From the IMG/VR virus record IMGVR_UViG_3300025316_001100: a stretch of DNA of 64,000 bases; one strand, given 5' to 3'. Source of the stretch: a virus. Its lineage: Duplodnaviria > Heunggongvirae > Uroviricota > Caudoviricetes. Under the pieces are notes generated by a model, which saw only the letters and a list, made by a program, of their open reading frames with translations, did no database searches and was not told where the DNA came from. Below are positions 3,096 to 61,347 of the stretch, in pieces. Both the position numbers and the translations under genes were made by a program. Positions within the stretch are counted from its first letter, which is position 1. Every line of letters starts with the position of its first letter.

Positions 3096-3334
3096 TTAAT
3101 CTATGTTTCTATTGAGAGCTTTTGTAATGATCTTGGAATCTTCCTCGCCACGGGAGGCTACGCCCAATGAGACGCTCTTGCCATAGCAATAAGCAACTAT
3201 TTTACCATCTTCTGGAACTAAGTCAACCGTCCCTGCTCCTAGCACATTTCCTCTGGACATCTGTGCGTGTTCTAAAATGGGATCAAACATCATGAATATG
3301 TTGCAACAAGAGACTTCTGTCACGATGTATTTCA
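3096..3334 (-). CDS. hypothetical protein (about 79 aa, MKYIVTEVSCC...), re-started relative to track ORF 3096..3542
   Basis: The N-terminal 70 aa of the track ORF is low-complexity. An ATGA stop/start overlap with the upstream 68-aa ORF and GGAGGA 9 nt upstream support an internal start. Confidence 0.35.
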
Positions 3335-5992: not shown

Positions 5993-6012
5993 TCTTATAC
6001 ACCCGGACTGAG
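5993..6012 (-). promoter_or_regulatory. conserved 20-bp intergenic element, copy 1 (minus: CTCAGTCCGGGTGTATAAGA)
   Basis: Exact family member. Its TAA supplies the stop of upstream ORF 5995..6402 (..SPGV*), and an RBS and start follow downstream. Confidence 0.6.
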
Positions 6013-7685: not shown

Positions 7686-7706
7686 TTGTTATACACCTGG
7701 ACTCAC
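7686..7706 (-). promoter_or_regulatory. conserved 20-bp element, copy 2 (minus: TGAGTCCAGGTGTATAACA)
   Basis: Directly followed by AGGAGcaagtcATG. Confidence 0.6.
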
Positions 7707-8363: not shown

Positions 8364-8383
8364 TGTTATACACCCGGACTCAG
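8364..8383 (-). promoter_or_regulatory. conserved 20-bp element, copy 3 (minus: CTGAGTCCGGGTGTATAACA)
   Basis: Its TGA is the stop of upstream ORF 8380..8613; SD AAGGAG follows. Confidence 0.6.
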
Positions 8384-11606: not shown

Positions 11607-11819
11607 CTATTGATCTTCCTTTTGATCGAACACGCAATGGCAATCGGTACATCGGAATCGATTTTTGAACATTCGTCCCAAACTTAAAACGTATGGAATA
11701 AATTCCCGTACCGATACTGGTTCAGTATAACGAACCACTCTACCTTTGAAGATGCCCTTGTTATTAGCCCCACACTCTGGACATACTGCATTGTAGATTC
11801 CCGATTGCACAATGCTCAC
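11607..11819 (-). CDS. Zn-ribbon protein (70 aa)
   Basis: CPECG ... CTDCHC motifs. Confidence 0.4.
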   Translation of the reverse strand: MSIVQSGIYNAVCPECGANNKGIFKGRVVRYTEPVSVREFIPYVLSLGRMFKNRFRCTDCHCVFDQKEDQ

Positions 11820-12445
11820 GATTTAACCTTTACTTTTTTCGGCCTTTCGACCGTGGTTTCAATTACATCGCCAGTACGCACTACCGGCACAGACATTCTC
11901 ATGTCACAAGGACGCACTCGCAGTTCCACATTGTCCAAGTCGATCCGGCCCTTGGCCTTGACCGTTTCCTTGATGCACTTGGCAAAGGGGGCAATGCTAT
12001 CGTTCGCACGCTTTTCCCATGCCGTAACACGCTGGGCCTCAGCCTTAACTTCGTCGGCCTTGATCGTGTGACTTTCACCCTTGGCATCAAACCAAGTAAC
12101 GTCATGCACTTCCCGGCCCTCATCGGACGCACGATCCAATTCAACACAAACCGTGGCAGCACGCCGCAAATTATCCTCAAGGAAGCCGGGGCTAGTTGCC
12201 ACGACCCAGGACAAAACTTTGTCCAACTTCACACCCTTGAATCGGTCAGTTTCGTAATCCTCACCGATCTTAACATCCATTGAATATTCGATGACGCCCG
12301 AAACATGGCTCTCGCCAACGGGCAGGGGCAATTCCTCACGAATCTGGTCCGAAAGGCTCTTACCCTTACTTTGGGATGCCAGCACCTTGCCCACAAAGAC
12401 AAGATCCTGTTTCCGATCACCACTGATTTGCTGATTCTTAGCCAT
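11816..12445 (-). CDS. hypothetical protein (209 aa)
   Basis: ORF; SD AAGGAGAA; preceded by the 20-bp element and a sigma70 promoter. Confidence 0.55.
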   Translation of the reverse strand: MAKNQQISGDRKQDLVFVGKVLASQSKGKSLSDQIREELPLPVGESHVSGVIEYSMDVKIGEDYETDRFKGVKLDKVLSWVVATSPGFLEDNLRRAATVCVELDRASDEGREVHDVTWFDAKGESHTIKADEVKAEAQRVTAWEKRANDSIAPFAKCIKETVKAKGRIDLDNVELRVRPCDMRMSVPVVRTGDVIETTVERPKKVKVKS

Positions 12446-12467: not shown

Positions 12468-12487
12468 TCTTATACACCCGGACTGAC
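12468..12487 (-). promoter_or_regulatory. conserved 20-bp element, copy 4 (minus: GTCAGTCCGGGTGTATAAGA)
   Basis: Lies 18 nt downstream of the promoter -10 at 12506-12511 and upstream of the SD. Confidence 0.6.
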
Positions 12488-14181: not shown

Positions 14182-14729
14182 TTCGTTTCCCCCGTCAAGG
14201 TCGCCTTAACCTGGGCCAATGTTTCAACCACATTATCTAATGTGTTTTGAGCATTCGCTCGCTCTTCCTCCAAGGAAGAAATATCAACTTCAATGCCGAA
14301 GTCCCGAATGAATTGCCGGGCAATTTCGTCACTATCGAAATTCAAAGACATGTCGCCATCGCTCCAATGCAAATCGACAACACCATCCTGATATTCTTCG
14401 CCACGCCGATTCTTCATCTTGTGAAAAACCAAGTAATCAGTGGAGTGATAATCGGGCCGCAGCAAATCCCGCAATTCGGGGAAATCTTCCCAATTGCCAA
14501 GACAAATCAATCCAAATGTAGACGCACCACCATGACGACCGGCACCCTGATGAAGATACAAACGCCAAGGCTTCTTCGTCAATAGCTTCTCCCCCTTGAC
14601 AATCTCATTTGTCAACTCAACAGTTAGGGAGTCCAAAGGGTCCATCTGCTGATGCAGTGCATCAATTTGGCTTCGTAAAGCCTCACGCTCATCGGTAGCT
14701 ATTTTTAGCAGGTTTCTTAATTCGCTCAT
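14178..14729 (-). CDS. hypothetical protein (183 aa), coiled-coil N-terminus
   Basis: ORF. Confidence 0.55.
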   Translation of the reverse strand: MSELRNLLKIATDEREALRSQIDALHQQMDPLDSLTVELTNEIVKGEKLLTKKPWRLYLHQGAGRHGGASTFGLICLGNWEDFPELRDLLRPDYHSTDYLVFHKMKNRRGEEYQDGVVDLHWSDGDMSLNFDSDEIARQFIRDFGIEVDISSLEEERANAQNTLDNVVETLAQVKATLTGETK

Positions 14730-14935
14730 TTTCTTCTCCCACTCGATTGCAGTCCACGCAATGTTGCGTTCATGGACTTGATGACTTTCTTCTCACAAGC
14801 CGGGCAACGCTTCTCCATAAACACTGGAAAGCCTCCAAAAATCAATTGCTTCCGGCTTGGCTCTGTAGATAACTTGGGATGGGTCTGCCTACACATACTG
14901 CAAATAGGTTCGCCCTGTTCATTATATTCGATCAT
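14726..14935 (-). CDS. Zn-ribbon protein (about 69 aa, start MIEYNEQ)
   Basis: CSMC ... CPAC; good RBS AAAGGAAAATCATG at the internal Met, whereas the track start at 14968 has no SD. Confidence 0.4.
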   Translation of the reverse strand: MIEYNEQGEPICSMCRQTHPKLSTEPSRKQLIFGGFPVFMEKRCPACEKKVIKSMNATLRGLQSSGRRK

Positions 14936-15232
14936 GATTTTCCTTTGAAAAAGAATCGCAACAGTCATTCATGACAACCAATTTGGTCGCACCTATTTAT
15001 GAGCTAACTAGGCTACTGGTGCTGTTACTGCCTGACCATACACCTGTTGCGATTCAAGGAGGCCCTCCCCGCCATAGGCGGGGAGGGCCTAAGTCCACCT
15101 TCTTTTTGTTTCAAAATACCGGATGCCGTTCCACGCCGAACGGCTTGTTCACACAGGTCATGACACTGGTGTGGCCCACTTCGGATTAGCCTCACGGCTT
15201 CCAACTTCTCGTAACTGCACATCCGGTATTCT

Positions 15233-15250
15233 CTTATACACCTGCACTCA
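15233..15250 (-). promoter_or_regulatory. conserved 20-bp element, variant copy 5 (minus: CTGAGTGCAGGTGTATAAGAG)
   Basis: Variant with GTGCAGG instead of GTCCGGG; lies in a 430-bp gene-free region. Confidence 0.45.
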
Positions 15251-15261
15251 GGGTATTAAAT

Positions 15262-15377
15262 TGCAGATAGTGGAATCGAACCACTTTTCTCCCCCATATG
15301 GCGGGGGCGAGTTAGAGTATCCTAATTCTAGCTCCCAAAGAGACTTTAAGGATGCCCACCACATTTCTCTAATCTGC
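15262..15377 (-). ncRNA. tRNA-like structured element (TpsiC arm AGTGG-TTCGATT-CCACT and a CCCCC-GCCATAT-GGGGG hairpin carrying CAT), closed by a GCAGAT/ATCTGC acceptor-like stem. No canonical 72-90 nt cloverleaf could be completed by hand
   Basis: The minus strand reads ...GCAGATTAGAGAAATGTGGTGGGC...CGCCCCCGCCATATGGGGGAGAAAAGTGGTTCGATTCCACTATCTGCA. It is flanked by two copies of the 20-bp element. Confidence 0.3.
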
Positions 15378-15383
15378 TACATG

Positions 15384-15404
15384 GTGTTATACACCGGGAC
15401 TCAC
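15384..15404 (-). promoter_or_regulatory. conserved 20-bp element, copy 6 (minus: GTGAGTCCCGGTGTATAACAC)
   Basis: Its TGA is the stop of ORF 15401..15784. Confidence 0.55.
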
Positions 15405-15784
15405 TTTGGCAACAGCCCTTCACGTTCCAGAACAGCACGGGCAACAGTGATTTCTGCTTGCCGACGACGTTCAGCCATAGCTTGCTCTTCTGTCTCTCGT
15501 TCTTTCTGTTCACGCTCGATTTCACTTTGGATATAGGTGTCCCAATTCTCTTTCGGCCCAAGCAGAACTGCTACAGGCACATTAATCCAACCCTCTTCTT
15601 CAGCACCATAAGCACCATGCCAATGCCACTTAATGGAAACAGATGTTTCATCCATCTGTACCTCACTAAAATGCTGAGCAGCAAAGTTTCTGTTCAAAAA
15701 CCGATATTGTAGAGCATAATGCTCGGCCACAGTATCGATCTCAGCTTTTTGTTTAACTAGGGCTTGATATGTTTGAATGTTCAT
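15401..15784 (-). CDS. hypothetical protein (127 aa)
   Basis: ORF. Confidence 0.55.
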   Translation of the reverse strand: MNIQTYQALVKQKAEIDTVAEHYALQYRFLNRNFAAQHFSEVQMDETSVSIKWHWHGAYGAEEEGWINVPVAVLLGPKENWDTYIQSEIEREQKERETEEQAMAERRRQAEITVARAVLEREGLLPK

Positions 15785-16020: not shown

Positions 16021-16314
16021 TTTATTCTTTCTTTTGTTAAATCTCGCCTATGCAGGACTTGCACCCACACTGCAAACTAGGATACAGCAACATACCGAAG
16101 TATTCCCTATCGTGAGTAGCTAATTAGCCTAATTTGCGTTTCCTAAGCCATTTCCCTTGGCTTTATGACCACTATTTCAAGGGCGGTTTCTAGGCGTCAT
16201 TTTTCTTAAATGTAATCAACTACCCCTTCGAAAGACTAGCTTTTCCGGCTACTGGTGAGCCGCACCCTACGATTTTCACGTTTATGGGCCACGGGGCAGT
16301 TAATCACTGATTCG

Positions 16315-19306: not shown

Positions 19307-19326
19307 TCTTATACACCTGGACTGAC
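19307..19326 (-). promoter_or_regulatory. conserved 20-bp element, copy 7 (minus: GTCAGTCCAGGTGTATAAGA)
   Basis: Its TAA is the stop of ORF 19309..19698 (..VSPGV*). Confidence 0.55.
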
Positions 19327-20669: not shown

Positions 20670-21893
20670 TTAACTGCTTGTCAATGCGACAAGACTTACA
20701 TTAGAACTCAATTGGCTATCCCCTGCATTCCGCAGGTTCATCATTCTTAAACCTTCGTTTAAGATATTCTTACTCGCATTGTAATCTCTATCGTGAGGCG
20801 TAAAACAATTAAAACAAGTCCAATGGCGTTCTTCCCCTAAATCACGATATCTCCATCCACATTCACTACACAATTGGGAAGATGGAAACCATCGGTCTAT
20901 TTTAATTATTTGTCTTCCATACCACTTTGCTTTATACATCAACTTTTGAACAAATGACGAGAAACAACAATCATTTAATTGGCGATGAAGTAATTTTTCT
21001 CTCCATCGCTTCTCTTTCCTTTTTTCTGGGTCTTTGTTTTTCAGCATTGATTTTACACTTAAATCTTCAATAACTATGACTTGGTTCTCATCAATTATTT
21101 TTTTAGATGTTTTGTGTAAGAAATCTTCACGAACATTACTTTGCTTTACTTTCAACTTATTTAACGCTAATTTACTTTTGTTTCTACGATTGCTTCCTTT
21201 AACTTTTCTGCTAACGGAACGAGCAAGGAAGCGTTCTCTTGACTTATATTTTGTAGTAGCAGGACGAGGATTAGCGAACCTTTCATCCTCACTACTTACA
21301 ATATATTGAACATTAAGGTCTAAACCTACAACTTTAATTACTTTGGGTAATTCTTCTATTTCTTTGACACAAGTAATAGAAACAAAGTATTGATTGGCTT
21401 TGTTTTTGCTAATTGTGGCAAACTCAATTTCACCTTCTAATGGTCGGTGAAGGATGATTGGGATGCCTTCAAGGAACTTCGGTATGACTAATTTATCATC
21501 AATCACTTTAACATTTTGTGGCACACGGAATGACTGCTTGCCGTGTCTTTTCTTAAATCGTGGGAAACCACACTTACCTTTGAATTTGCCTTGTTTCTTT
21601 AACTTACATTTTTCAAAGAAATTATCAAAGCCATTCTGTAATTGGCGTGCTGCGTATTGAAGTGATTGACTACCGACTTCCTTCAACCATTCGTATATTT
21701 GTTTCAATTCAGGAATACTTGTGGCGTTGTCATAATAATTTAATGACTTATGTTCTTCACCTTTATGAGCATCAATGCGAGAACGGAGAAACTGATTATA
21801 CAAAAACCTTACGCAACCAAAGTGTTTGGCTAAAAGTATTTGTTGTTGCTCCGTTGGATACAACCTATATTTATAGGTAAATTGATGCTTCAT
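20670..21893 (-). CDS. tnpB: TnpB/OrfB transposase-associated RNA-guided nuclease family protein (407 aa)
   Basis: N-terminal YKYRLYPTEQQQILLAKHFGCVRFLYNQFL (the OrfB helix-turn-helix signature); C-terminal CSECG...WTCFNCF...DRDYNASKNI (Zn-finger plus the RuvC-III motif). Confidence 0.8.
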   Translation of the reverse strand: MKHQFTYKYRLYPTEQQQILLAKHFGCVRFLYNQFLRSRIDAHKGEEHKSLNYYDNATSIPELKQIYEWLKEVGSQSLQYAARQLQNGFDNFFEKCKLKKQGKFKGKCGFPRFKKRHGKQSFRVPQNVKVIDDKLVIPKFLEGIPIILHRPLEGEIEFATISKNKANQYFVSITCVKEIEELPKVIKVVGLDLNVQYIVSSEDERFANPRPATTKYKSRERFLARSVSRKVKGSNRRNKSKLALNKLKVKQSNVREDFLHKTSKKIIDENQVIVIEDLSVKSMLKNKDPEKRKEKRWREKLLHRQLNDCCFSSFVQKLMYKAKWYGRQIIKIDRWFPSSQLCSECGWRYRDLGEERHWTCFNCFTPHDRDYNASKNILNEGLRMMNLRNAGDSQLSSNVSLVALTSS

Positions 21894-23410: not shown

Positions 23411-23430
23411 CTCTTATACACCTGGACTCA
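23411..23430 (-). promoter_or_regulatory. conserved 20-bp element, copy 8 (minus: GTGAGTCCAGGTGTATAAGA)
   Basis: Followed by GGAAGATGAAAGGACCAATAATATG; its TAA is the stop of 23414..23647. Confidence 0.55.
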
Positions 23431-23647
23431 CGGCATTAAGTTGCCTAACAGCAGAAGCACTCCAACGACCAATATCGCCAACCTCGTTCCAACCACATGT
23501 ATCATCTGGATCATTTTGAGACAAACGTACAATTCGATCACTTCCTCTAGCACCAACCAAGACCCCTTTAACCTCACGCTTACATCCTGGTCCCTCAGTG
23601 CGAGTTAGACTTCCACGTTCAATTATAACTGGTGTACCGAATTTCAT
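23414..23647 (-). CDS. hypothetical protein (77 aa)
   Basis: ORF ending ..VSPGV*. Confidence 0.4.
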   Translation of the reverse strand: MKFGTPVIIERGSLTRTEGPGCKREVKGVLVGARGSDRIVRLSQNDPDDTCGWNEVGDIGRWSASAVRQLNAVSPGV

Positions 23648-28260: not shown

Positions 28261-28281
28261 TGTGTTATACACCCGGACTCA
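28261..28281 (-). promoter_or_regulatory. conserved 20-bp element, copy 9 (minus: CTGAGTCCGGGTGTATAACAC)
   Basis: Lies 24 nt downstream of the promoter -10 and upstream of the 28223 start. Confidence 0.6.
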
Positions 28282-28305
28282 GTTTGATTTCATCTTCGCT
28301 ATAAA

Positions 28306-37084: not shown

Positions 37085-37350
37085 TATAATTGATCCAAAA
37101 TCTCTTGGGTAATTTCCACCCGCCTGTTGTGTCCTACAGTCAATACATCACCAATTTTTACTTCTATCGGTGCCGATAGATCAGTAATCGGGTTGTCATT
37201 CAGCTTAACGATGCCGCCAACAACCAACCGCCGACCCTCAGATTGACTCACTACCATTCCAGCCCTTGCTAGTAGCTTGGCCGGAAGGACGCTCTGTGTT
37301 ATACACCCGGACTCACGAAATTTCTTCTGGTCGAAAAATATTAGATCCAT
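37084..37350 (-). CDS. S4-like RNA-binding domain protein (88 aa)
   Basis: LPAKLLARAGMVVSQSEGRRLVVGGIVKLNDNPIT...IGDVLTV fits the S4 (Hsp15/TyrRS C-terminal) pattern. The 20-bp element sits inside this ORF, in the non-stop frame. Confidence 0.4.
   Translation of the reverse strand: MDLIFFDQKKFRESGCITQSVLPAKLLARAGMVVSQSEGRRLVVGGIVKLNDNPITDLSAPIEVKIGDVLTVGHNRRVEITQEILDQL
37296..37316 (-). promoter_or_regulatory. conserved 20-bp element, copy 10 (minus: GTGAGTCCGGGTGTATAACAC), the only intragenic copy
   Basis: Encodes ..RESGCIT.. within ORF 37084..37350. Confidence 0.5.
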
Positions 37351-37684: not shown

Positions 37685-37703
37685 CTTATACACCGGAACT
37701 CAG
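37685..37703 (-). promoter_or_regulatory. conserved 20-bp element, variant copy 11 (minus: CTGAGTTCCGGTGTATAAGA)
   Basis: Its TGA is the stop of the upstream ORF; followed by AGGTGTAGGAGGtaatgacATG. Confidence 0.5.
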
Positions 37704-42977: not shown

Positions 42978-42999
42978 TGTGTTATACACCCGGACTCAG
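42978..42999 (-). promoter_or_regulatory. conserved 20-bp element, copy 12 (minus: CTGAGTCCGGGTGTATAACACA)
   Basis: Lies 4 nt downstream of a GTAGTATAAT -10 box at 43004-43013 and upstream of the RuvB-like gene. Confidence 0.55.
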
Positions 43000-44097: not shown

Positions 44098-44117
44098 TGT
44101 TATACACCTGGACTCAC
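44098..44117 (-). promoter_or_regulatory. conserved 20-bp element, copy 13 (minus: GTGAGTCCAGGTGTATAACA)
   Basis: Upstream of the sigma-like gene; its TAA is the stop of 44100..44402. Confidence 0.55.
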
Positions 44118-44430: not shown

Positions 44431-44450
44431 TCTTATACACCTGGACTCAC
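44431..44450 (-). promoter_or_regulatory. conserved 20-bp element, copy 14 (minus: GTGAGTCCAGGTGTATAAGA)
   Basis: Followed by TGGAGCAGACTCATAATGAAAGTAAAAAATG. Confidence 0.55.
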
Positions 44451-45825: not shown

Positions 45826-45844
45826 CTTATACACCCGCACTGGA
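45826..45844 (-). promoter_or_regulatory. conserved 20-bp element, variant copy 15 (minus: CCAGTGCGGGTGTATAAGC)
   Basis: Variant; precedes the RBS of 45477..45806 and lies directly downstream of the iteron block. Confidence 0.45.
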
Positions 45845-50202: not shown

Positions 50203-51159
50203 CTATTGAGAACCTAAAACTCTATCACACTTTACAGAACTTGTCAATCCTTGATAAAGAGTGAAAAACGCTCCATTGAAAGGAAAATCAAAACACTCAC
50301 CTTCTTGTTTTATTGGAAATAATACCGTACCTCTCTTAATGCAAGCCACCGGCACCAATTCCTTGCTAATACTGTCATAGACAGACATGCCCACCAAAGC
50401 ACCGCCAGGAGTTTTCAAAACATGCAAATCACAATTTGCAATTAACCCCTCAATTTTCACTGCTGAATGTTCTATTCTCGGCACTTCCAATTCTTTTCTG
50501 CGATTGACGATTAAATTCGTTAATGCTCGCTTGCCAATTTTATCTTTATTGGCATCAAACAATTGTCGCAATTCTCTAATTGCATCCAAAGACAAATTAC
50601 ATGATGCTTTTAGATTATTGCAAATTGCACACATGCTCTGATAATTTGAGAATTCATTTCTGCCGCCTATTGATGCTGGACAGATATGATCCTTAGTCAT
50701 CAGCACCAATTCTCCATTTTCTTCTGCATACAGATTGAAATGTGGAGCTTTATCATTTGGGTGCATCTCCAATAGCATTTTTGTTCCTTCAATGCCACAG
50801 GCTGCACAATTACGATTGGCGTGAAAGACAAAGTAACGGTGCGAATTCATTCGTACTAAATATTGTTTCTTACCAGCCGCATATTCTTTTTTTGTATCTG
50901 TGTGGGTAATGAAAGGCAACACTTCTTCTGGAGTAAACTCGCCCAAAACAAGCCTATATGTTTTTTGTTTCCGCTGAGCAATTTGTGAAATTCTAGTTAA
51001 AGTGAATGGCGGAACAAGAATGTTGCCTAGCTGCTCGGCAGCCAACTTCATTAAATCTTGTCCTGCTCCCTCTATCTCAAAATCCCACTCGACGATTGCT
51101 CTCGCCTTATATCGTTTCGTCATGATTGCATTAAGTGTATCAAAAATCCTAAACCCCAC
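50203..51159 (-). CDS. HNH endonuclease-domain protein (318 aa)
   Basis: CAACGIEG....DHICPASIGGRNEFSNYQSMCAICNNLK is an HNH motif. Confidence 0.5.
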   Translation of the reverse strand: MGFRIFDTLNAIMTKRYKARAIVEWDFEIEGAGQDLMKLAAEQLGNILVPPFTLTRISQIAQRKQKTYRLVLGEFTPEEVLPFITHTDTKKEYAAGKKQYLVRMNSHRYFVFHANRNCAACGIEGTKMLLEMHPNDKAPHFNLYAEENGELVLMTKDHICPASIGGRNEFSNYQSMCAICNNLKASCNLSLDAIRELRQLFDANKDKIGKRALTNLIVNRRKELEVPRIEHSAVKIEGLIANCDLHVLKTPGGALVGMSVYDSISKELVPVACIKRGTVLFPIKQEGECFDFPFNGAFFTLYQGLTSSVKCDRVLGSQ

Positions 51160-52463: not shown

Positions 52464-54068
52464 TTACTTCCCAGACTGCACATTTATCACAGGGGTAATC
52501 CCCTTGAGATCCGTCCAAAGAGTACCAGGGCCAGAATAAATCATCTTCAAATCAATGTCATCTGGCAATCCTGTAGCAAATTGCCACTGCGTATAAGCCG
52601 ATGGATCACCAAAAGCCTTAACGGCCAATTCAAACAACTGTGCCTTGGCTTCCTGCTGCAACCGTTTGGAAGCGTTCTCGGCCTCACCGATAGCGACCAC
52701 CTTTTGAGCTTCGATATCGGCCACCTTCCTATCAACAGCAGCAATCATCTTCTCCGTTTCAGCGGCCGTAGTATCAGCAGTCTTTTGGCCTTCGGCATTG
52801 ACATTGGCAACCAATTTCTTGGTGCCTTCCGTAATTTTTGCCGCTTCCAATTTAACAGTCTGTTCGGCAGCACGCAACTTCATTTCAGTCTTGGCTGTAG
52901 TCGCTTCCTGGGTACGTGTCAAAGCCAATTCGTCGGCAATGTAGCCCTTTTGAATAGGTTCTCGCACGTCCTTCGGAATGTAAATGTGACGCACTAAACC
53001 GTACAATAAACTAATGTTCTTTTCTTTCAACACTTTATTGAAAGATTTATCAACATCCTCTTGGAATTTTTGTCGGCTATCACCCACAAGCAATTCCACG
53101 GCTCCCAATCTCGATCCATTGTTACGACAAATAGATTCGCATTGAGGAATAATCACTTTGCTTTCCACAGCGGCCAAATTACCAAAACGACTGATAATGT
53201 CTGGGCACTGATCAGGCAGCACTCCCCACACAGCACTGAAGTCCATTTGAATCTTGAATCCATCGCTCGAAGGGAATGTAATGCCTGTATTCACTACTGG
53301 CATACATTCTCCGCTGGCGTCAACTAGAACTTGATTCTGCTGGTTGACTTGCTTCTCGGTCGAAATCTCTTTGGCATTATAACCAATAGAAACAATATCG
53401 ATTTGCATCTCACGGGGATTGATCGGATAAAGGCCAGGAGGCAATGTATCCTTTTGAATTCCCGCTTTACGACCAAGAGCAGTGTTGTCTGTCAAATACG
53501 TGACCACGCCAACATAACCAGGGTTTATATGCACCCAACCAGCGTGCTTCATTTGTGGTATTTGTTGAGAGCCAACATTCGTCTCTTCAGTTCTAACGAC
53601 CTTTACTTCGTAACCATACGGATTGATACGATACCGTCCAGGTCCGAATGTACGTCGCAAAATACCCTTTTGTGTAGTGGCCCCAAGATCACCATCAACC
53701 AAAAATTGACCACTAGGCAAATCGTTGCCCAATTTACTGGTAACAATGGCCAATTCACCGGGCTTCACCACAACGTCGTCAACCACTGTTCGTTCCCACC
53801 AAACGGGACAATAAAAATGACGACCAGGGCCGGGCATGTCACACTTTACACCAATCTCACCCTCTTTGGCAAAATTGCCAGCAGCAGCATACTTGTTGCC
53901 CAACGTAAAAAACAACGGTCCCTTATACCGCAACATAAGACTTTGACCGGGTTCAACGTAAACTCGATTAACAGTCCAGTCGAAGAAAAAGTAAGAGCAG
54001 AACAGGGCAATTACGCCCAGGCCCACACTAGCAAGCAAACAACCCTTGGTTTCATCTCTCAAACTCAT
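52464..54068 (-). CDS. SPFH/band-7 (flotillin/HflKC-like) membrane protein, paralog B (534 aa)
   Basis: N-terminal TM helix; internal PG-YPINP repeats; C-terminal Ala/Glu/Gln-rich coiled-coil (AETEKMIAAVDRKVADIEAQKVVAIGEAENASKRLQQEAKAQ). Paralogous to 54084..55628. Confidence 0.5.
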   Translation of the reverse strand: MSLRDETKGCLLASVGLGVIALFCSYFFFDWTVNRVYVEPGQSLMLRYKGPLFFTLGNKYAAAGNFAKEGEIGVKCDMPGPGRHFYCPVWWERTVVDDVVVKPGELAIVTSKLGNDLPSGQFLVDGDLGATTQKGILRRTFGPGRYRINPYGYEVKVVRTEETNVGSQQIPQMKHAGWVHINPGYVGVVTYLTDNTALGRKAGIQKDTLPPGLYPINPREMQIDIVSIGYNAKEISTEKQVNQQNQVLVDASGECMPVVNTGITFPSSDGFKIQMDFSAVWGVLPDQCPDIISRFGNLAAVESKVIIPQCESICRNNGSRLGAVELLVGDSRQKFQEDVDKSFNKVLKEKNISLLYGLVRHIYIPKDVREPIQKGYIADELALTRTQEATTAKTEMKLRAAEQTVKLEAAKITEGTKKLVANVNAEGQKTADTTAAETEKMIAAVDRKVADIEAQKVVAIGEAENASKRLQQEAKAQLFELAVKAFGDPSAYTQWQFATGLPDDIDLKMIYSGPGTLWTDLKGITPVINVQSGK

Positions 54069-54083
54069 GATTAGGTTCCTTTC

Positions 54084-55628
54084 TTAATTCTTAGAGGGTG
54101 TAATAGGAGTGTTCGCCGCTGGAGTCGTAGTCCATTGACGTTTGGAATCAAACGTCCTGAATACATCCATGAGCGGACTATCCTGTGTATTGACCATCAT
54201 GCCCTTAAAGGCTGGGGCCAACTTCTTGTAAAGCGTCCAACGAGCAAATTCATTACCGTTATTTCCAAACGCCGCAATAGATCGCTTCCAACCAGCAGCC
54301 TCGGCTTCATTAGCAAACATAACAACGTCTGCCTTGGCTTTGCCAGTGGCCATAATGGCTGCCGCTTGATCTTTAGCTGCAAGCAATTGTTGCTCGGCAA
54401 CAGCCAATCGTTTTTGGGCTTCAATTACAGCCACTTCCTGCCGTTGCAAAGCTTGTGTAGTTACAGCAACCACAGCTTGGTCAGCAGCAACTTTAGCTTG
54501 CTTCTGCAACACCGTCGCCTTTTGTACGGCCAAATCCTGCTCCGAAGCTTGCTGCGCAATCTCTTTTGTAAATTGCGATTCTTGCTGTAAAGCGATTTGT
54601 CGTCTACGAACCGGATCAGCAATTTGTTCCGGTGGCCGAATGGTTGTAATCAATGCCTGGATCACTTCGATGCCTTGTGCGCCGCAAGTAACCTTCATTG
54701 CCGTTTGAAAATCTTCTTGGAACGTCACACGGGTATCCCCAGTAATAAATTCTTTACCAGAATGGTTTGATCCCTTGAGACGAGTATAAGCACGTGCATT
54801 GGGTAGAATAACTTTGGCAATTACCTCTTCATCCAATGCCTTACCACTACGCTCTTCATTGAAAAGAATGTAGGTAGTCGGTGCAGTCTCGGGCTTCACC
54901 CTAAATTCAATAATACCCTCAAGACTGACCCAAAAACCATCTCTAGTCGGGAAGCCAATATCTTGCAAATTGTATCGTTGACTTCGACAATCAATCAAAC
55001 GAGTTTCTTGCACATACGGATTCAAATAATATGTGCCCGGCTCCAAACAATCAGCTTGTACTCCACGACAATCCTTGGGCGACAAAATTTGATTGGCTTT
55101 TTCAGGCATCGTTGCGGCCAAATTGGTAAGCAACCCCTTATACCCAGCAGGAATACTTACGGGATCATGCAATTCAATCATTTCTGCATAATCATTTCTG
55201 ACAGGCGTAGTGCCTTGAATAAAACCATTGATTGGATATCGTCCAGGTCGCAATACTTCAGGAACAATACCCTTTTGCGTTTCTTTCCATGCAATCAATT
55301 CACCGGCTGCAAGGTCTTCGCCATAAATACGAATGCGAACACCCAACTTGCCTTCGGGAATTTCAACCTGCGGCACCACTTCAGAATCCCAAACATAAGG
55401 ATTGTAGTAATACCGACCTTCAGTAAGTACATCCTTCTGAACACCCTTATAATCTTGAGTGGGGGCAATAATCATGCCCGGCTCCAGATCATTGCCAGTC
55501 TTTTTCATCAGAATGGCCATGTGCTTGGCAGGCACGTCAATCCGCATCTCGGAATACATCCACCAAGGCGTAATCACAACAAACGCTACAAGAATCGCAA
55601 TCCAAATCCAAATCTTTGAGGAGTCCAT
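54084..55628 (-). CDS. SPFH/band-7 (flotillin/HflKC-like) membrane protein, paralog A (514 aa)
   Basis: N-terminal TM helix; SPFH-like core (FPTRDGFWVSLEGIIEFRV...); flotillin-like AQ/AEA coiled-coil (KQAKVAADQAVVAVTTQALQRQEVAVIEAQKRLAVAEQQLLAAKDQAAAI...ANEAEAAGW). Confidence 0.5.
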   Translation of the reverse strand: MDSSKIWIWIAILVAFVVITPWWMYSEMRIDVPAKHMAILMKKTGNDLEPGMIIAPTQDYKGVQKDVLTEGRYYYNPYVWDSEVVPQVEIPEGKLGVRIRIYGEDLAAGELIAWKETQKGIVPEVLRPGRYPINGFIQGTTPVRNDYAEMIELHDPVSIPAGYKGLLTNLAATMPEKANQILSPKDCRGVQADCLEPGTYYLNPYVQETRLIDCRSQRYNLQDIGFPTRDGFWVSLEGIIEFRVKPETAPTTYILFNEERSGKALDEEVIAKVILPNARAYTRLKGSNHSGKEFITGDTRVTFQEDFQTAMKVTCGAQGIEVIQALITTIRPPEQIADPVRRRQIALQQESQFTKEIAQQASEQDLAVQKATVLQKQAKVAADQAVVAVTTQALQRQEVAVIEAQKRLAVAEQQLLAAKDQAAAIMATGKAKADVVMFANEAEAAGWKRSIAAFGNNGNEFARWTLYKKLAPAFKGMMVNTQDSPLMDVFRTFDSKRQWTTTPAANTPITPSKN

Positions 55629-56255: not shown

Positions 56256-57200
56256 TCACTTGAAAAACTCGGCCTGATCGACAAACTGCATGCTAGCCCG
56301 GAGTGCGCCCGTCTTGTCTGTCGTGGAATCCCCCACGAAAATGCACTCGCTAGGTTGTAATTTCCAATTCCTGATGTGGTGAATGAAAAGTCCAGACTGC
56401 GGCTTACGACAATAGCAAGTCATTGGTGGAATCCGATGAGGACAAAACAGAGTGTCGATTTCCACGCCCAACAATTTACAAGTATGGGCAAACATCGCTT
56501 CTGCTTCGGCATGGGTAAATTCATTTTTGGCAATAGCCGATTGATTCGACGCACCAAGCAAGTGATAACCTTTCTTCTTCCATGCTTTGAGAACAGCCGT
56601 TCGATTAGGAAGAATTTCAATCTCGTCCTTGGCAACCGGATATACCTTTGCTCCCTTTGATTTACGAAGCGTGTCATCAAAGTCAAGAATAATTGCCTTA
56701 TTGACAAAATCCTTAGGATATGGACGACGCTCGAAATGATGTTTCTCAATTCGTGCGAATCCTTCTGTCGTCGTCGGTTTTTGAAATTCTTTACGATACT
56801 TGAAAAGCACAGCCACAGGAAACATATTGGGATCGTCTTTTACGGCTTTCAAATCATCCTGCGTGAAGAAGATTTCGCCATAACGATCCCACATGCGATT
56901 CAACGCATTGATCTGTGCGTCTTCAATGCTGGTGTCCATTAATTTACAAACAACAACGGCCTTCCTCTTCGTGGCTTGCTCAATAAATGGCTTACGGCTT
57001 TCAACGGTGGGAAATGTATTGTCAAGGACTACATTCTTGCCATCAGATAAAGCAGCCACCATCTGCGGCACAAGATCGATAACCTTACCGCCTGTAATGT
57101 CTCGACTAAGATGTATATGACCTTGTTTCTTGTAATCCTCGGTAACTGTCGATTTGCCAGAGGCCGGGCATCCACAAATAAGAACAACTTCTTGGGTCAT
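56256..57200 (-). CDS. Polynucleotide 5'-kinase / 3'-phosphatase (T4 PseT/Pnkp-like, 314 aa)
   Basis: N-terminal P-loop LICGCPASGKST (kinase); C-terminal HAD phosphatase motifs ILDFDDTL (DxDxT) and FVGDSTTD. Confidence 0.8.
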   Translation of the reverse strand: MTQEVVLICGCPASGKSTVTEDYKKQGHIHLSRDITGGKVIDLVPQMVAALSDGKNVVLDNTFPTVESRKPFIEQATKRKAVVVCKLMDTSIEDAQINALNRMWDRYGEIFFTQDDLKAVKDDPNMFPVAVLFKYRKEFQKPTTTEGFARIEKHHFERRPYPKDFVNKAIILDFDDTLRKSKGAKVYPVAKDEIEILPNRTAVLKAWKKKGYHLLGASNQSAIAKNEFTHAEAEAMFAHTCKLLGVEIDTLFCPHRIPPMTCYCRKPQSGLFIHHIRNWKLQPSECIFVGDSTTDKTGALRASMQFVDQAEFFK

Positions 57201-57213
57201 AATGATCTTTCTT

Positions 57214-58347
57214 TTAACCAGGAATGTAAGCAGTCTGCATGGTCAATATATTGCCAGGACTGTCTTTGGCGTTAAGTAAATAAGACGTAGGATCAAGCAA
57301 ATAATCCCATTTGGGAGCATCTAATTTCCAAGAATGAGAAGCCGATGTTCTTTCCCGTTCGTACAACTCCACATGGAGCATCGCACGGGAATGGCCGGGA
57401 ACGTCGGGACGTTCCCGGCCTTCTTTCACAACTGGTGTTACCGTGCCAATAAAATCACCAGCCCGCACAATATCGCCGGGTTTCCATTTTTCATAAACTT
57501 GGATTTCGCCATAACACACAATTCCACTGGGGCCTTCGACTAAAACGCAATCCGTATCGTTCCACCAAGGCGAATTATCCTGCGGTCCTGTAAACATTTC
57601 CTTGCCAACCACTCGGCCATCTTCCACCGCTTGTACAAAAGTGCCTTGGGCACAATAAAGATCCACACCAGTATGATGGGAGTGTTTACGTGCAAATCCA
57701 AAAGCCCCTGGATGATAACCACAAGGAATGCCTGGGCAGTTGGTCAATGGAAATCTCCATCGCAAACAATCTTTTGTTTGCTGTACGATGTCACTAATGT
57801 TGGCCATCGCACCATTACCTTCATCGTTGCAAGCCAGCATCTTAGTTTGTGGATCGACTCGTTTCCAACCCATGCCAAACAAAGTACGCATATTTTTTTG
57901 CGTAATCTCGTTTTGAAGCATCATGGTATTCATAGCCGGTGCATAAATGATCGGCCGTGTATAATCCCATGCTGCAACCGTGCTAGTTAAAATATTATCC
58001 GCCAATCCATTGGAAACCATACCCAACGTATTGTATGTGATTGGTGCAATGACCAATACCCCTGCCCATTTTCTTAGACCGATGTGAACTACCGGATCAC
58101 CCTTCTTCTGCCAAACCTTCGTGCCATGCGGCGTAGTCCATTCATTAAAATCAGTGAATACTTGAATATCTTTGTGCCCAGCAATATATGCCTGTGCATT
58201 TTCGTCGTGAAAGATGTCATTTTCAAAAAAATAACGACCCTTGTCGGTAGTGACAACTCTTACGTTGCCAAGCTCCCGAAGGGTAACCGCTAATTTTTTA
58301 GTAAGTGTCGCTGCAACACTACCGGTAACACCAAGTAAAATATTCAT
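57214..58347 (-). CDS. HFCD-family flavoprotein (phosphopantothenoylcysteine decarboxylase CoaC-like) fused to a C-terminal degenerate M23/LytM peptidase-like domain (377 aa)
   Basis: N-terminus MNILLGVTGSVAA..., VLVIAPITYNTLGMVSNGLADNILTS..PAMNTMM...ACNDEGNGAM (CoaC/Dfp N-domain pattern). C-terminus HHTGVDLY..GTFVQAVEDGRVV...GDFIG..AMLHVELYE...DPTSYLL (M23 fold, HxH degenerated to MLH). Confidence 0.65.
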   Translation of the reverse strand: MNILLGVTGSVAATLTKKLAVTLRELGNVRVVTTDKGRYFFENDIFHDENAQAYIAGHKDIQVFTDFNEWTTPHGTKVWQKKGDPVVHIGLRKWAGVLVIAPITYNTLGMVSNGLADNILTSTVAAWDYTRPIIYAPAMNTMMLQNEITQKNMRTLFGMGWKRVDPQTKMLACNDEGNGAMANISDIVQQTKDCLRWRFPLTNCPGIPCGYHPGAFGFARKHSHHTGVDLYCAQGTFVQAVEDGRVVGKEMFTGPQDNSPWWNDTDCVLVEGPSGIVCYGEIQVYEKWKPGDIVRAGDFIGTVTPVVKEGRERPDVPGHSRAMLHVELYERERTSASHSWKLDAPKWDYLLDPTSYLLNAKDSPGNILTMQTAYIPG

Positions 58348-58614: not shown

Positions 58615-59400
58615 TCATTTCAAGCTTTCTCGATGTCTTAATCCAGCAGCCGCTCCCGTAACTACCACTTTTGCTAAAAAATTTGGATCACTTATTTGCT
58701 GGTGATAAACTTGTGGCTCATTAGGACATGCGGCACAACCGAATACATCATCTTTCTCATCGGCATACACCAACGTCAAACAATGCGCATTGTTTTTCAT
58801 ATCCCTTAAATCGTTTGCAACAATCATATCGCAATGATTGCTACGAATACTATGTTGAGCCGCTTCAATCAATTGTTCATCTGTAGAGTCCACCAACAGT
58901 TTGAATCCGACCAAATATGTTCGTGGATACCACGATTTAACTTGGCTAATGATCTTAGGCAAAGCTACCAAAGGAATGTTCATTTCAGCTACACTCGACC
59001 GCATCTTGCCCTCTACGATAGCTGCTGCACCATAGTCCGATACAGCCGCCGCAAGAATTACAATATCTGGCCTGCCGCCCATTACTGCTGCCTTTAACTG
59101 TATGTGATAATCATCAAAGGTGCGATATTCAAATTCCCAATAAGACGTGTGATGGGCTGCATACAATTCATAAATTTCACCTGTCCGCTGCATGGCTACT
59201 GCAAGGCTCTCACGATCAAAATTTACCCTAGTAGAAAATGGAGACTTTGAATCTTTGGCCTTTAGAAATGTTACCTTGTGCCCGGCCTTCAATGCTTCGG
59301 TCGCAATCTTAGCACCAAATGTTCCACTGCTCATGTTCGTAATATCACGGACACGATCAATTGAAATTTTTGTCCCACCAGATGTAATTAAAATGTTCAT
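58615..59400 (-). CDS. coaB: Phosphopantothenate-cysteine ligase (CoaB domain, 261 aa)
   Basis: ILITSGGTKISIDRVRDITNMSSGTFGAKIATEALKAGHKVTFL matches the Dfp C-domain motif ([34 protein letters not shown].VTLV). Confidence 0.7.
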   Translation of the reverse strand: MNILITSGGTKISIDRVRDITNMSSGTFGAKIATEALKAGHKVTFLKAKDSKSPFSTRVNFDRESLAVAMQRTGEIYELYAAHHTSYWEFEYRTFDDYHIQLKAAVMGGRPDIVILAAAVSDYGAAAIVEGKMRSSVAEMNIPLVALPKIISQVKSWYPRTYLVGFKLLVDSTDEQLIEAAQHSIRSNHCDMIVANDLRDMKNNAHCLTLVYADEKDDVFGCAACPNEPQVYHQQISDPNFLAKVVVTGAAAGLRHRESLK

Positions 59401-60306: not shown

Positions 60307-61347
60307 TTAGATTCCAAAAACATCGCAAAATTCCTCTGCGATATCTAGGATCTCTTCTTTACGATCCAGACCATCGATCAAATGTTGGGGGAAGATACTC
60401 ATGCCATTTACAGCACCAAGCATCGCACCCACAATTGCTCCATTGGTATCGGCATCGCCACCCACGCTAACTGTATCATACAAAGTCTCAATGCCATGCG
60501 GGTTACGCAAAAACATCATATAGGTCAAAGGCATATTCCAATAGCAGCAAAATCGCTGACCACCTTCGCCCATAAACTCTTCAACGATCCTGGGAATATT
60601 ATACTCTCGATACGCTTCTAGTAAAGCAAATCGCTGAGTAATATCATCAGTTTCGGGATCGGTGTTCAACCGACCTTCGGCACACCATTGCTTACCACGT
60701 AGGCCCGCACGTTTGATGGTAGCAGCAAATGCATCTGAATCAAACGGATCAGCAGCAAGACAATAAAATGCCGCCATAACTTGAGCAAATGCTGAACACA
60801 ATGACATTTCAGTGTAGTGCGTCATGAAATTCAAATTCTTGACAAACTGAAATGCTTCCAGAGCAATCTTGTCACGTTCAACCGGTTCTGGATTGTTGCC
60901 TTTAATCAATTGATAAAGAACAGCCGATACCGGACTAATCTTCATGGGCAAACCATTACCCTTGCCCCGGCCTTCATTCTTCAATCCACTCTTTGACCAA
61001 TGCACGCCATTAGCCAAACTACGGATAGCTTCTCTGGTTGTTCCACCCCAAGCCTTTGAATTTTCTTTGAGAGCTTCGATATGCGTTTCAGCCTGGGCGT
61101 CCATATCAAAGCTTTTGGCTTTAATCAGGCCCTTGGCGACAGCCAATGTCAATTGAGTGTCATCTGATGTACAACCGGCTTTCACGCCATTATGCCACTT
61201 ATGTCCAGTAGGATCTTGATATGTTGTAATGCGACCGTACTTTTCTTTTATTTGATCCGCAGACCAACATTCTACCGGCAATCCAAGACTGTCGCCAACA
61301 GCCGTTCCAATAAAAACAGCTTTTACTCTATCACGCATTGATACCAT
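60307..61347 (-). CDS. ADP-ribosylglycohydrolase family protein (346 aa)
   Basis: N-terminus FIGTAVGDSLGLPVE (G..GDALG.P.E motif); C-terminus VSVGGDADTNGAIVGAMLGAVNG (GGDTDT...G.L.GA motif). Confidence 0.75.
   Translation of the reverse strand: MVSMRDRVKAVFIGTAVGDSLGLPVECWSADQIKEKYGRITTYQDPTGHKWHNGVKAGCTSDDTQLTLAVAKGLIKAKSFDMDAQAETHIEALKENSKAWGGTTREAIRSLANGVHWSKSGLKNEGRGKGNGLPMKISPVSAVLYQLIKGNNPEPVERDKIALEAFQFVKNLNFMTHYTEMSLCSAFAQVMAAFYCLAADPFDSDAFAATIKRAGLRGKQWCAEGRLNTDPETDDITQRFALLEAYREYNIPRIVEEFMGEGGQRFCCYWNMPLTYMMFLRNPHGIETLYDTVSVGGDADTNGAIVGAMLGAVNGMSIFPQHLIDGLDRKEEILDIAEEFCDVFGI

Follow-up and report, generated by a model that had tools for sequence, protein, structure and literature searches.

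A 118-nucleotide (nt) gene for an RNA with the architecture of a transfer RNA (tRNA) and an extra hairpin arm in its D-loop was found on the minus strand of a 64,000-nt stretch of IMG/VR virus record IMGVR_UViG_3300025316_001100 (Caudoviricetes); this whole stretch is called the window below. The tRNA architecture is complete apart from the extra D-loop arm, a promoter-like motif lies 7 nt upstream of the gene, and paired positions co-vary between the window and a sister lineage, L016. We consider it somewhat probable that the gene specifies an expressed, structure-constrained, initiator-derived tRNA-like RNA. The region around it is best explained as two putative transcription units of a huge-phage-like genome, the P6 unit and the P5 unit, P6 and P5 being two copies of the promoter-like motif. 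An earlier reading of this DNA (the original prediction) had proposed an RNA related to tRNA that lies between two copies of a repeated element, and this core idea holds. The features it listed are all present, at or within 2 nt of where it had placed them, including the closure of GCAGAT (15377-15372) by ATCTGC (15268-15263), the T arm, the GC stem with a CAT loop and both element copies. The strand on which they were presented had to be exchanged, as it is the minus strand that carries the genes and the elements and on which the tRNA-like RNA is read.

The acceptor of the RNA gene has seven positions, forming six Watson-Crick pairs and an A1xA72 mismatch, and the T arm has a stem of 5 base pairs (bp), a canonical T loop and the G53-C61 pair. 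The exact T-loop consensus GGTTCRAWTCC has a single match in the window, which is this T arm. The anticodon arm has a 5-bp stem, a 7-nt loop and a purine at position 37 in both sequence variants, with position 33 being C in the window and U in L016. The core nucleotides of a tRNA are present, namely U8, A14, G18G19, A21, G10-C25 with G45, G26 with A44, G53-C61, T54-Psi55-C56 and A58. A D arm of normal size has a 3-4-bp stem and a 7-11-nt loop; here the stem GAG/CUC and the conserved nucleotides are present, but the loop holds a 43-nt hairpin. The D-loop reads A14 A15 U G U G18 G19 U20 before the arm and U A21 after it, so that the arm enters the length-variable part of the loop, after position 20, and its junctions are flush with an 8-9-bp helix. 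No second copy of the 43-nt arm sequence was found in the window or in the compared loci. Because this hairpin sits in the D-loop, the cloverleaf had been missed earlier; with the arm set aside the rest is canonical.

Deletion of exactly positions 15357-15315 caused ARAGORN to report a tRNA-Met(CAT), with scores of 109.1 for the window and 108.6 for L016 and with a cloverleaf that equals our manual numbering. For comparison, a genuine tRNA-Glu of a related phage scored 113.2. We also scanned deletions of at least 20 nt between the acceptor strand and the anticodon arm, that is, in the D region, with default ARAGORN (1035 deletions per variant). A tRNA was called for 175 of the 1035 window sequences and for 107 of the 1035 L016 sequences, and the calls listed were mostly tRNA-Met(CAT) with about 42-50 nt removed. 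A generic descriptor, consisting of a T arm whose loop reads TTCRANN, an arm of the 5-bp/7-nt kind 4-5 nt upstream of it and a 6-bp acceptor closure 10-100 nt further upstream, gave one match in the window, the RNA gene, and zero in 200 dinucleotide shuffles, and it recovered the tRNA-Glu of the related phage as a control. The check that had been set in advance, a search with ARAGORN and Rfam, formally went against a tRNA, as the default tools find none, whereas the arm-deleted sequence is called tRNA-Met; the default tools fail because of the insertion, not because tRNA architecture is absent. A transfer-messenger RNA (tmRNA) was considered and rejected, since the tmRNA mode of ARAGORN finds none and the match to the Rfam family cyano_tmRNA reaches 13.7 bits against a gathering score of 70 and is local over the T arm.

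Several marks of the RNA gene point to initiator tRNA. The anticodon CAU (15300-15298) and the discriminator A73 (15261) are present, and CAU, A73, G2-C71 and C3-G70 make up the identity set of Escherichia coli methionyl-tRNA synthetase. In the D stem, G10, A11 and G12 pair with C25, U24 and C23 in both variants, and the acceptor carries A1xA72 (the usual form is C1xA72), G2-C71 and C3-G70. A survey of CAU tRNAs in 234 bacterial genomes found A11-T24 and G12-C23 to be complete discriminators of the formylmethionine (fMet) tRNA, C3-G70 to be usual in Met and fMet tRNAs and not in Ile tRNAs, and C1, G2, C3, G70, C71, A72 and A11-U24 to be the features of formylation (PMC1635315). Because pairs 29-31:39-41 are flipped, positions 32 and 38 are G and U, and the window has C33, the gene is called initiator-derived, which seems apter to us than initiator-family membership.

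We compared the RNA gene in the window with that in L016; all other readable contigs carrying the locus are identical to one or the other. The two variants differ at 13 positions of the gene, 12 of them by transitions. Three base pairs are changed on both sides: 6-67 from A-U to G-C, with partners 106 nt apart, 28-42 from C-G to U-A, and 50-64 from G-C to U.U, so that two of the three doubly hit pairs (6-67 and 28-42) are compensatory. Pair 52-62 is G-C in the window and G.U in L016, and the anticodon loop differs at positions 33 and 37. When substitutions were placed at random in simulation, the probability of at least three doubly hit pairs was 0.001-0.003. In the two aligned variants, standard pairs make up 97% of the pair cells, against 38-47% with partners slid by 1-3 columns. 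The three substitutions in the extra arm are all in its closing helix (C.A to C-G, G.U to G-C and C-G to U.G) and keep or improve pairing. None of the 13 substitutions falls on U8, A14, G18, G19, A21, G53, T54-C56, A58 or C61. There are no insertions or deletions (indels) in the gene, against indels of 76, 38 and 3 nt in the adjacent untranslated region (UTR).

Divergence is 11% in the RNA gene and 4.8% in the 3.4-kb block upstream of it. It is patchy along the locus (0-16 per 100 nt), which makes a local excess uninterpretable, and faster-than-neutral evolution of the gene was rejected on this ground. Window positions 18850-14750 form a mosaic relative to L016, in which stretches of 200-500 nt that have 0-1 substitutions lie between stretches that have 7-16 per 100 nt, and L016 identity is about 95% upstream of the intergenic region and about 82% downstream of it. 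This pattern is consistent with frequent recombination and with a boundary inside the intergenic region. In folding calculations, the proposed structure has an energy of -35.8 kcal/mol and the window minimum is -37.6. The minimum-energy fold is a four-way junction that shares the acceptor, anticodon and T arms of the proposed cloverleaf; its UAGAG/CUCUA helix was rejected, as it contains an A.C mismatch in L016.

The repeated element that flanks the RNA gene is a 19-nt promoter-like motif with the consensus (C/G)TGAGTCCNGGTGTATAA(C/G), the last position being C or G and never T. At up to three mismatches it has 12 matches in the window, in a single orientation, that of the genes, where 0.01 would be expected by chance; three weaker copies, likewise on the gene strand, bring the number to 15. 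Past the motif, within about 12-60 nt, 13 of the 15 copies have a Shine-Dalgarno sequence and an ATG, and once AAGGAG begins 1 nt after it. The same motif, including its AGTGCNGG variant, stands upstream of dozens of genes in the related 131-kb viral contig IMGVR_UViG_3300022555_003222, where the ATG sometimes lies only 1-8 nt downstream, and it is also common to a more distant lineage, L022. These features fit a phage-specific promoter with its start site at the end of the conserved block: since a Shine-Dalgarno sequence or an ATG comes 1-8 nt after the motif at other copies, transcription would start at the motif end. The same spacing, together with a last position that is never T, makes an ordinary sigma-70 -10 box unlikely. 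The motif is like T7-type phage promoters in its conserved block of 17-19 nt, its strict gene orientation, its many copies per genome and the Shine-Dalgarno sequence or ATG 1-8 nt after it. The conserved block of T7-type promoters, of about 17-19 nt, is known to end at the start site, whereas here the start site is predicted from sequence. The motif sequence itself has no known relation to the T7, T3 or SP6 consensus.

P6, which precedes the RNA gene, is a full-consensus copy and the sole copy in the window that is not followed by an open reading frame (ORF) or the 5' UTR of one. P5 lies on the other side, upstream of a gene for a 69-amino-acid (aa) protein, and the 42 nt around it are identical in L016. 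The L022 lineage has a homologue of P5, followed by the 17-mer AGTTACGAGAAGTTGGA, a GC hairpin and the same small gene, without the tRNA-like gene. Because the P5 homologue, the 17-mer and the gene occur there without the tRNA-like gene, P5 appears to be the ancestral promoter of the 69-aa gene. The idea that P5 and P6 bound a mobile unit was rejected, as both are promoter-like sites. A normal tRNA-Glu(UUC) without encoded CCA is found in the related 131-kb viral contig (L003, 8070-8141, minus strand), about 110 nt downstream of two degenerate promoter-like copies (GAGTTCAGATGTATAA; 8330-8255, minus strand) and followed by a copy of the AGTGCAGG type. This layout of promoter, tRNA-Glu and promoter resembles that of P6, tRNA-like gene and P5 in the window. 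A strong GC hairpin stands a few nt after many promoter copies, for example AGCCCACCCGGC-GUGU-GCCGGGUGGGCU and GAUCGUUCCGCC-NNN-GGCGGAACGAUC; it looks like a feature that recurs in the 5' UTRs of the phage group and perhaps acts as a 5' stabilizer or attenuator.

We propose that P6 drives a stand-alone 118-nt RNA gene. Transcription would begin at the end of the P6 motif, RNase P would cut the 7-8-nt leader at U-1/A1, and the 3' trailer would be cut after A73. CCA would then be added, because none is encoded; the tRNA-Glu of the related phage is likewise without encoded CCA. The P6 transcript would terminate at the downstream hairpin and U tract. The mature RNA would retain the extra arm, projecting from the D-loop at the elbow of the L-shape, and might be methionylated, perhaps even formylated. 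Speculatively, its most likely role would be that of a phage-made initiator tRNA variant, either supplying initiation during infection or acting as a mimic or decoy, because CAU, A73, G2-C71, C3-G70, the 1x72 mismatch and A11-U24 are kept. The remodelled anticodon stem-loop and the arm would distinguish the RNA from the host initiator, for example toward nucleases that cut tRNA-fMet. P5, the hairpins and the remaining region would form a long, variable 5' UTR of the 69-aa gene. Huge phages are reported to encode tRNAs, IF1, IF3 and S21 (PMC7162821), phage tRNAs with altered anticodon loops have been proposed to evade host tRNA nucleases (PMC10264068), and VapC toxins cleave tRNA-fMet in the anticodon stem-loop (PMC4705866). 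These observations would make an initiator or mimic role plausible; they do not test it.

Homologues of the RNA gene were sought in several collections. In viral contigs, 185,579 species genomes and JGI metagenomes, exact patterns (T arm plus acceptor, the arm, and variable loop plus T arm) found only the L016-type contig already known. When the region and the arm-deleted tRNA were compared by BLAST with 50,697 phage records, the only matches were of 18 nt and joined the T arm to the T arms of annotated phage tRNAs. A covariance model (R1) run over all fetched loci found nothing beyond its two source sequences, and a generic pattern describing a canonical fMet gene whose D-loop holds an insert found in IMG/VR only a normal tRNA preceded by a chance match. 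Searches with the flanking proteins revealed three lineages only, the window type, the L016 type and the L022 type, of which the L022 type is without the RNA gene.

A number of observations weigh against an expressed, structure-constrained tRNA-like RNA. The covariation rests on two sequence variants, which makes the statistics thin, and a shuffle control reached the observed values in 102 of 500 shuffles, a control that is uninformative with two sequences. No homologue beyond the window and L016 types was found in any collection searched. Default ARAGORN reported zero tRNA genes in the window and in L016, and Rfam gave nothing for the RNA gene at the gathering score or at E<=10 except the cyano_tmRNA match mentioned above. 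The descriptor, the numbering and the initiator comparison were devised after the site had been seen. Within the structure, C33 of the window replaces a near-universal U33, G32 and U38 can pair and thereby leave a loop of only 5 nt, A15/A48 departs from the standard Levitt pair, and the initiator hallmark R29 G30 G31 / Y39 C40 Y41 is replaced by C29 C30 C31 / G39 G40 G41, the opposite orientation. The T stem of L016 is weak (A-U, U.U, U-A, G.U, G-C). Its minimum-energy fold has no T arm and is 6.6 kcal/mol better than the cloverleaf, although arm-deleted L016 is still accepted by ARAGORN. RNAalifold favors a different, non-tRNA consensus fold.

The main rival draws on most of these points: the gene would be a decaying pseudogene, that is, a phage tRNA-fMet gene inactivated by the 43-nt D-loop insertion and now drifting, its structure a remnant. 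C33, G32/U38 and the flipped 29-31:39-41 pairs of the window, the U.U and G.U of the L016 T stem with its better alternative fold, the 11% divergence against 4.8% upstream, the failure of default detectors and the lack of a homologue elsewhere speak for such a remnant. We nevertheless regard it as unlikely, although deserving serious attention. Three doubly hit pairs, two of them compensatory and one reaching across 106 nt, are hard to obtain by random placement, and the gene is without indels although the UTR beside it has three. The universal tertiary nucleotides are unchanged, all three changes in the arm strengthen its helix, and a full-consensus promoter has been kept 7 nt upstream. As divergence is so patchy along the locus, the 11% is not evidence of drift. 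"Degenerate tRNA", one of the options of the original prediction, is partly apt at most, since paired positions show co-variation. A well-preserved pseudogene known from two sequence variants is still the main risk to our reading; if the gene is one, it is a modest curiosity.

We think it rather unlikely that the gene goes further than an initiator-derived RNA and encodes a natural five-armed tRNA, an initiator-type tRNA-Met with a stable extra D-loop helix that is processed, charged and used. If it did, the phage would have, through the extra arm and the remodelling of the anticodon stem-loop, an initiator of its own, which could resist tRNA-fMet nucleases or which a phage factor could use to steer ribosomes to phage messages, and there would be a class of tRNA genes hidden from current gene finders.

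The tRNA-like element could instead act in cis as a processing signal (a t-element, or punctuation) that recruits RNase P and RNase Z and sets the ends of the flanking mRNAs. The genes on either side of it have the same orientation, and no terminator separates the upstream one from the element. Such a signal needs only an acceptor and T domain, which would agree with an extra D-loop arm being tolerated and with an unusual anticodon loop; in plant mitochondria, the ends of mRNAs are shaped by tRNA-like t-elements (PMC1920247). We find this improbable, as a promoter of its own 7 nt upstream and P5 for the downstream gene make punctuation unnecessary. An RNase P/Z signal would need neither the compensatory change in the anticodon stem nor the kept CAU loop, it leaves the initiator-specific marks of the D stem and acceptor unexplained, and the part it needs most, the T arm, is the part that is weakened in L016.

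It is more doubtful that the arm is excised and that the halves are then joined into a normal tRNA of 75 nt, for example by enzymes that heal and seal RNA ends. Exact deletion does yield a canonical tRNA, the window encodes a T4 Pnkp-like kinase-phosphatase, an RNA end-healing type of enzyme, and ARAGORN with the intron option (-i) reports an "intron" at the RNA gene. However, 43 nt is far below the size of a group I or group II intron, the flush junctions on an 8-9-bp helix contain no group I or II intron core and no bulge-helix-bulge motif, no Rfam intron family was matched, and the Pfam matches of the 125 window proteins include no RNA ligase or splicing endonuclease family. The ARAGORN -i model is a tRNA-Ile(GAT) whose anticodon loop would hold a 21-nt intron and in which the CCCCC hairpin would form a long variable arm. 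It was rejected because L016 loses a pair in its anticodon stem, while the model with a D-loop arm gains pairs. The same option also calls a tRNA-Ser(CGA) with a 60-nt intron at 12072-12216 on the minus strand (score 102.9), likely a false positive inside a conserved 209-aa coding gene (11816-12445), which shows the error rate of the option. With the anticodon-loop model broken by the L016 substitutions and the arm unsuited to either kind of intron, the intron-containing tRNA suggested by the original prediction was abandoned. A relic of a tRNA cluster, which it had also suggested, finds no place either, as no other tRNA was found in the 64-kb window or in about 10 kb past its left end (about 74 kb).

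The 3' part of a host tRNA gene is often duplicated in the attachment site of a phage, but a phage attachment site or captured host tRNA gene fragment is disfavored and only remotely likely here: both tRNA halves are present and not just the 3' part, no integrase family is among the Pfam matches of the window proteins, and the 3' half was not found in two scans of the 185,579 species genomes. Chance resemblance in a region rich in GC hairpins, with a descriptor and numbering devised after the sequence was seen, is scarcely credible, given zero descriptor matches in 200 shuffles, a single exact T-loop consensus in 64 kb, default ARAGORN scores of about 109 for both of the diverged variants once a single deletion is made, and co-varying pairs.

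The positions of the parts of the RNA gene, the promoter-like motifs, the neighboring features and the other genes discussed are collected in Table 1.

Table 1. Features of the window and of related loci, with window coordinates unless a locus is named.
Feature	Position	Strand	Remarks
tRNA-like gene, A1 to A73, 118 nt	15261-15378	-	tRNA(CAU) with extra D-loop arm; no CCA encoded
Predicted 5' leader ACCAUGU, U at -1	15379-15385	-	removal by RNase P predicted
Acceptor 5' strand AGCAGAU (1-7)	15372-15378	-	six Watson-Crick pairs with 15268-15263; A1xA72 mismatch
U8, A9, D-stem 5' strand GAGA (10-13), D-loop AAUGUGGU (A14, G18, G19, U20)	15358-15371	-	sequence and ARAGORN drawing
Extra 43-nt hairpin arm between D-loop positions 20 and 20a	15315-15357	-	closing helix GGGCAUCC(U)/(A)GGAUACUC; inner hairpin CUCU-UUG-GGAG
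U20a, A21, D-stem 3' strand ACUC (22-25), G26	15308-15314	-	sequence and ARAGORN drawing
Anticodon arm CCCCC-GCCAUAU-GGGGG (27-43)	15291-15307	-	anticodon CAU at 15300-15298
Variable loop AGAAA (44-48)	15286-15290	-	5-nt spacing as in class I tRNAs
T arm AGUGG-UUCGAUU-CCACU (49-65)	15269-15285	-	
Acceptor 3' strand AUCUGCA (66-72) and discriminator A73	15261-15268	-	
P6 promoter-like motif GTGAGTCCCGGTGTATAAC	15386-15404	-	overlaps stop codon of 127-aa gene; ends 7 nt before A1 of the RNA gene
P5 promoter-like variant CTGAGTGCAGGTGTATAAG	15233-15251	-	of the AGTGCNGG type; upstream of 69-aa gene
Motif copies	5994-6012, 7688-7706, 8365-8383, 12469-12487, 15233-15251, 15386-15404, 19308-19326, 23413-23431		plus-strand coordinates
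Motif copies, continued	28264-28282, 37298-37316, 37685-37703, 42981-42999, 44099-44117, 44432-44450, 45826-45844		plus-strand coordinates
Post-promoter GC hairpins	window ~42975-42930; L001 ~10730-10690, 8330-8290, 3610-3570; L003 ~10465-10425	-	
Upstream 127-aa gene	15401-15784	-	no assigned function; stop codon inside P6
Long hairpin closed by AUACCGGAUG/CAUCCGGUAU, then UUUG	15112-15229	-	contains 76-nt internal segment without counterpart in L016
13-bp GC hairpin	15061-15089	-	5' UTR of 69-aa gene
Segment closed by 12-bp inverted repeat GAAUCGCAACAG/CUGUUGCGAUUC, then UUUUUC	14953-15056	-	15056-15045 with 14964-14953
Shine-Dalgarno AAGGA (14945-14941) and 69-aa CxxC...CxxC gene (ATG 14935-14933)	14726-14945	-	called as 69 aa on other contigs
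TnpB (IS605 OrfB / Cas12f-like) gene	20670-21893	-	
Two tandem SPFH/Band 7 proteins	52464-54068 and 54084-55628	-	
314-aa protein	56256-57200	-	N-terminal P-loop kinase (AAA_33) and C-terminal PNK3P/HAD phosphatase
Flavoprotein (CoaC-like) domain fused to M23 peptidase, beside separate DFP (CoaB-like) protein	57214-58347 and 58615-59400	-	
ADP-ribosylglycohydrolase, LAGLIDADG endonuclease, NUDIX hydrolase, HNH endonuclease	among 60307-61347, 61331-62218, 62917-63786, 50203-51159	-	

The stretch without coding sequence extends over 14936-15400, and the downstream ORF begins at the ATG at 14935. The original prediction had given the gene-free region as 14966-15404; the conserved 69-aa gene is real and lies at 14726-14935. 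Its homologues have 91% identity in L016 and 72% in the L022 lineage, and its product is a zinc-ribbon-like CxxC...CxxC protein. A 65-aa ORF at 15025-15222 was rejected, as its frame is broken by the 76-nt indel of L016. The whole 446-nt region folds with z = -5.2 relative to shuffled sequence. A weak Rfam match to the eukaryotic small nucleolar RNA sn2343 (14906-14980, minus strand; 24.1 bits against a gathering score of 60, E = 0.003) covers the ribosome-binding site and the start of the 69-aa gene, is similar in L016 (20.6 bits) and was taken as chance.

Between P5 and the 69-aa gene, the hairpin at 15229-15112 corresponds in L016 to a plain stem of 16 bp with UAUUUUG after it; in the window the closing stem and the tail are the same but enclose an insert of 76 nt. 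A simple terminator scan did not list this hairpin, as its limits on loop and stem exclude it. It is a candidate terminator of the P6 transcription unit, a candidate 5' stabilizer of the P5 mRNA, or both. The 17-mer AGTTACGAGAAGTTGGA (window 15216-15200, minus strand) lies inside the 76-nt segment, which is absent from L016, and is shared with the 5' UTR of L022. In that UTR (3205-3275, plus strand), ACCCAACCGGC can pair with the upstream GCCGGGUGGGU or the downstream GCCGGUUGGGU, alternative pairings that look attenuator-like. The 13-bp GC hairpin (15089-15061) reported by the original prediction is present and conserved; in L016 one of its pairs has changed in a compensatory way (C-G to U-A) and its loop is inverted. 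The 12-bp inverted repeat that it reported is present as well, but L016 is without 38 nt that include the left arm of the repeat, so that its pairing is not conserved. The hairpins of 15229-14953 appear to be part of the long, variable 5' UTR of the 69-aa gene.

Small genes are densely packed in the window, nearly all of them on the minus strand, and its GC skew is strongly negative throughout. Most of the products have no family assignment, and those that have one point to a large phage: HNH and LAGLIDADG endonucleases, the T4 Pnkp-like kinase-phosphatase, a NUDIX hydrolase, an ADP-ribosylglycohydrolase, two SPFH proteins and TnpB. The domain order of the 314-aa protein is that of T4 polynucleotide kinase-phosphatase, an RNA end-healing (tRNA repair) enzyme. 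No structural gene was found within the 64-kb window, and no RNA polymerase family among the Pfam matches of its proteins. The closest phage record is a 595-kb uncultured phage, through one AAA protein with 45% identity. The proteins flanking the RNA gene also occur on metagenome contigs from stratified boreal lakes, the longest of these contigs being 374 kb; the lake samples with this phage belong to JGI 3300009175 and 3300009502 and to the ENA sets BUCK21 and GROS21. On these grounds we call the genome "huge-phage-like", a probable assignment. Related TnpB genes are found at varying positions near a homologous 181-aa gene in the L022 lineage (L024 2037-3251, L025 2937-4142 and L026 1897-3144), and these varying positions suggest that TnpB has recently been mobile within this phage group. 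The third-largest non-coding gap by a rough gene call, 16021-16314 on the minus strand, is 294 nt long, has a fold z of -2.4 and is without the promoter motif. Only 2 of its 306 positions aligned with L016 are different there, but special conservation of the gap was rejected, as it lies inside a patch of about 500 nt of near-zero divergence that includes coding sequence.

The shape of tRNA is among the most conserved features in biology, and its known exceptions lose arms, as in mitochondria, or enlarge the variable arm, as in class II tRNAs and tRNA-Sec. A tRNA body that keeps all tertiary-contact nucleotides while carrying a D-loop hairpin would be a new structural solution, and charging of the RNA would show that a large appendage can be accommodated at the elbow of the L-shape. 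The initiator-like body bears on how huge phages control translation initiation and on the arms race over tRNA-cleaving defenses. Phage tRNA counts may miss genes of this sort, because this one is invisible to default ARAGORN and Rfam; the procedure of deleting and rescanning found it.

The RNA gene is like bacterial initiator tRNA-fMet in CAU, A73, G2-C71, C3-G70, A72, the unpaired 1x72, A11-U24 and G12-C23, and also in three consecutive G/C pairs beside the anticodon loop, U8, A14, G18G19, A21 and the canonical T loop. A normal phage initiator tRNA from IMG/VR (L057, 4008-4082) opens in a similar way, with xGCAGxx-UA-GAG. Unlike tRNA-fMet, the RNA gene has the 43-nt D-loop hairpin, A1 instead of C1, C-G instead of G-C at 29-31:39-41, G32 and U38, C33 in one lineage, A46 and A48, and it is missed by ARAGORN and Rfam. 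Its large phage-like genome, phage promoter-like motif and lack of an encoded CCA are shared with phage-encoded tRNAs (PMC10264068, PMC7162821). An anticodon loop that departs from the host-type consensus, with positions 33 and 37 differing between close lineages, recalls the phage tRNAs with nuclease-escape loops (PMC10264068). Known phage tRNAs, however, have the standard four-arm shape and are found by standard tools, whereas this gene has an additional arm, the fifth, and is not part of a tRNA cluster.

Extra sequence hides the gene from gene finders, as it does in intron-containing tRNA genes, such as bacterial ones with group I introns in the anticodon loop and archaeal ones with bulge-helix-bulge introns at non-canonical positions (PMC3241643), and the same detection problem is reported for Patescibacteria (PMC13011429). 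Unlike those introns, the insert of the RNA gene is 43 nt long, lies in the D-loop and is without a group I core or bulge-helix-bulge motif, and nothing indicates its removal. Plant mitochondrial t-elements (PMC1920247) and the tRNA-like domain of tmRNA are similar in being acceptor/T-arm mimics embedded between genes, but they are without a full D arm and a CAU anticodon arm, both of which the RNA gene has. Class II tRNAs, with their long variable arm, and tRNA-Sec are alike in that the body tolerates an extra helical arm outside the stacks of acceptor and T arm and of D and anticodon arm; their additional arm, however, belongs to the variable region, or their D stem is longer, whereas here the arm is in the D-loop (PMC7609411, a 2020 review of non-canonical tRNAs). 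Among 12 of the 30 passages of that review that mention the D-loop, the D-arm or insertions, none describes a hairpin inserted in the D-loop (PMC7609411). Phage tRNA genes, including initiators, are ordinary; what is out of the ordinary is a helical arm set into the D-loop of a tRNA body.

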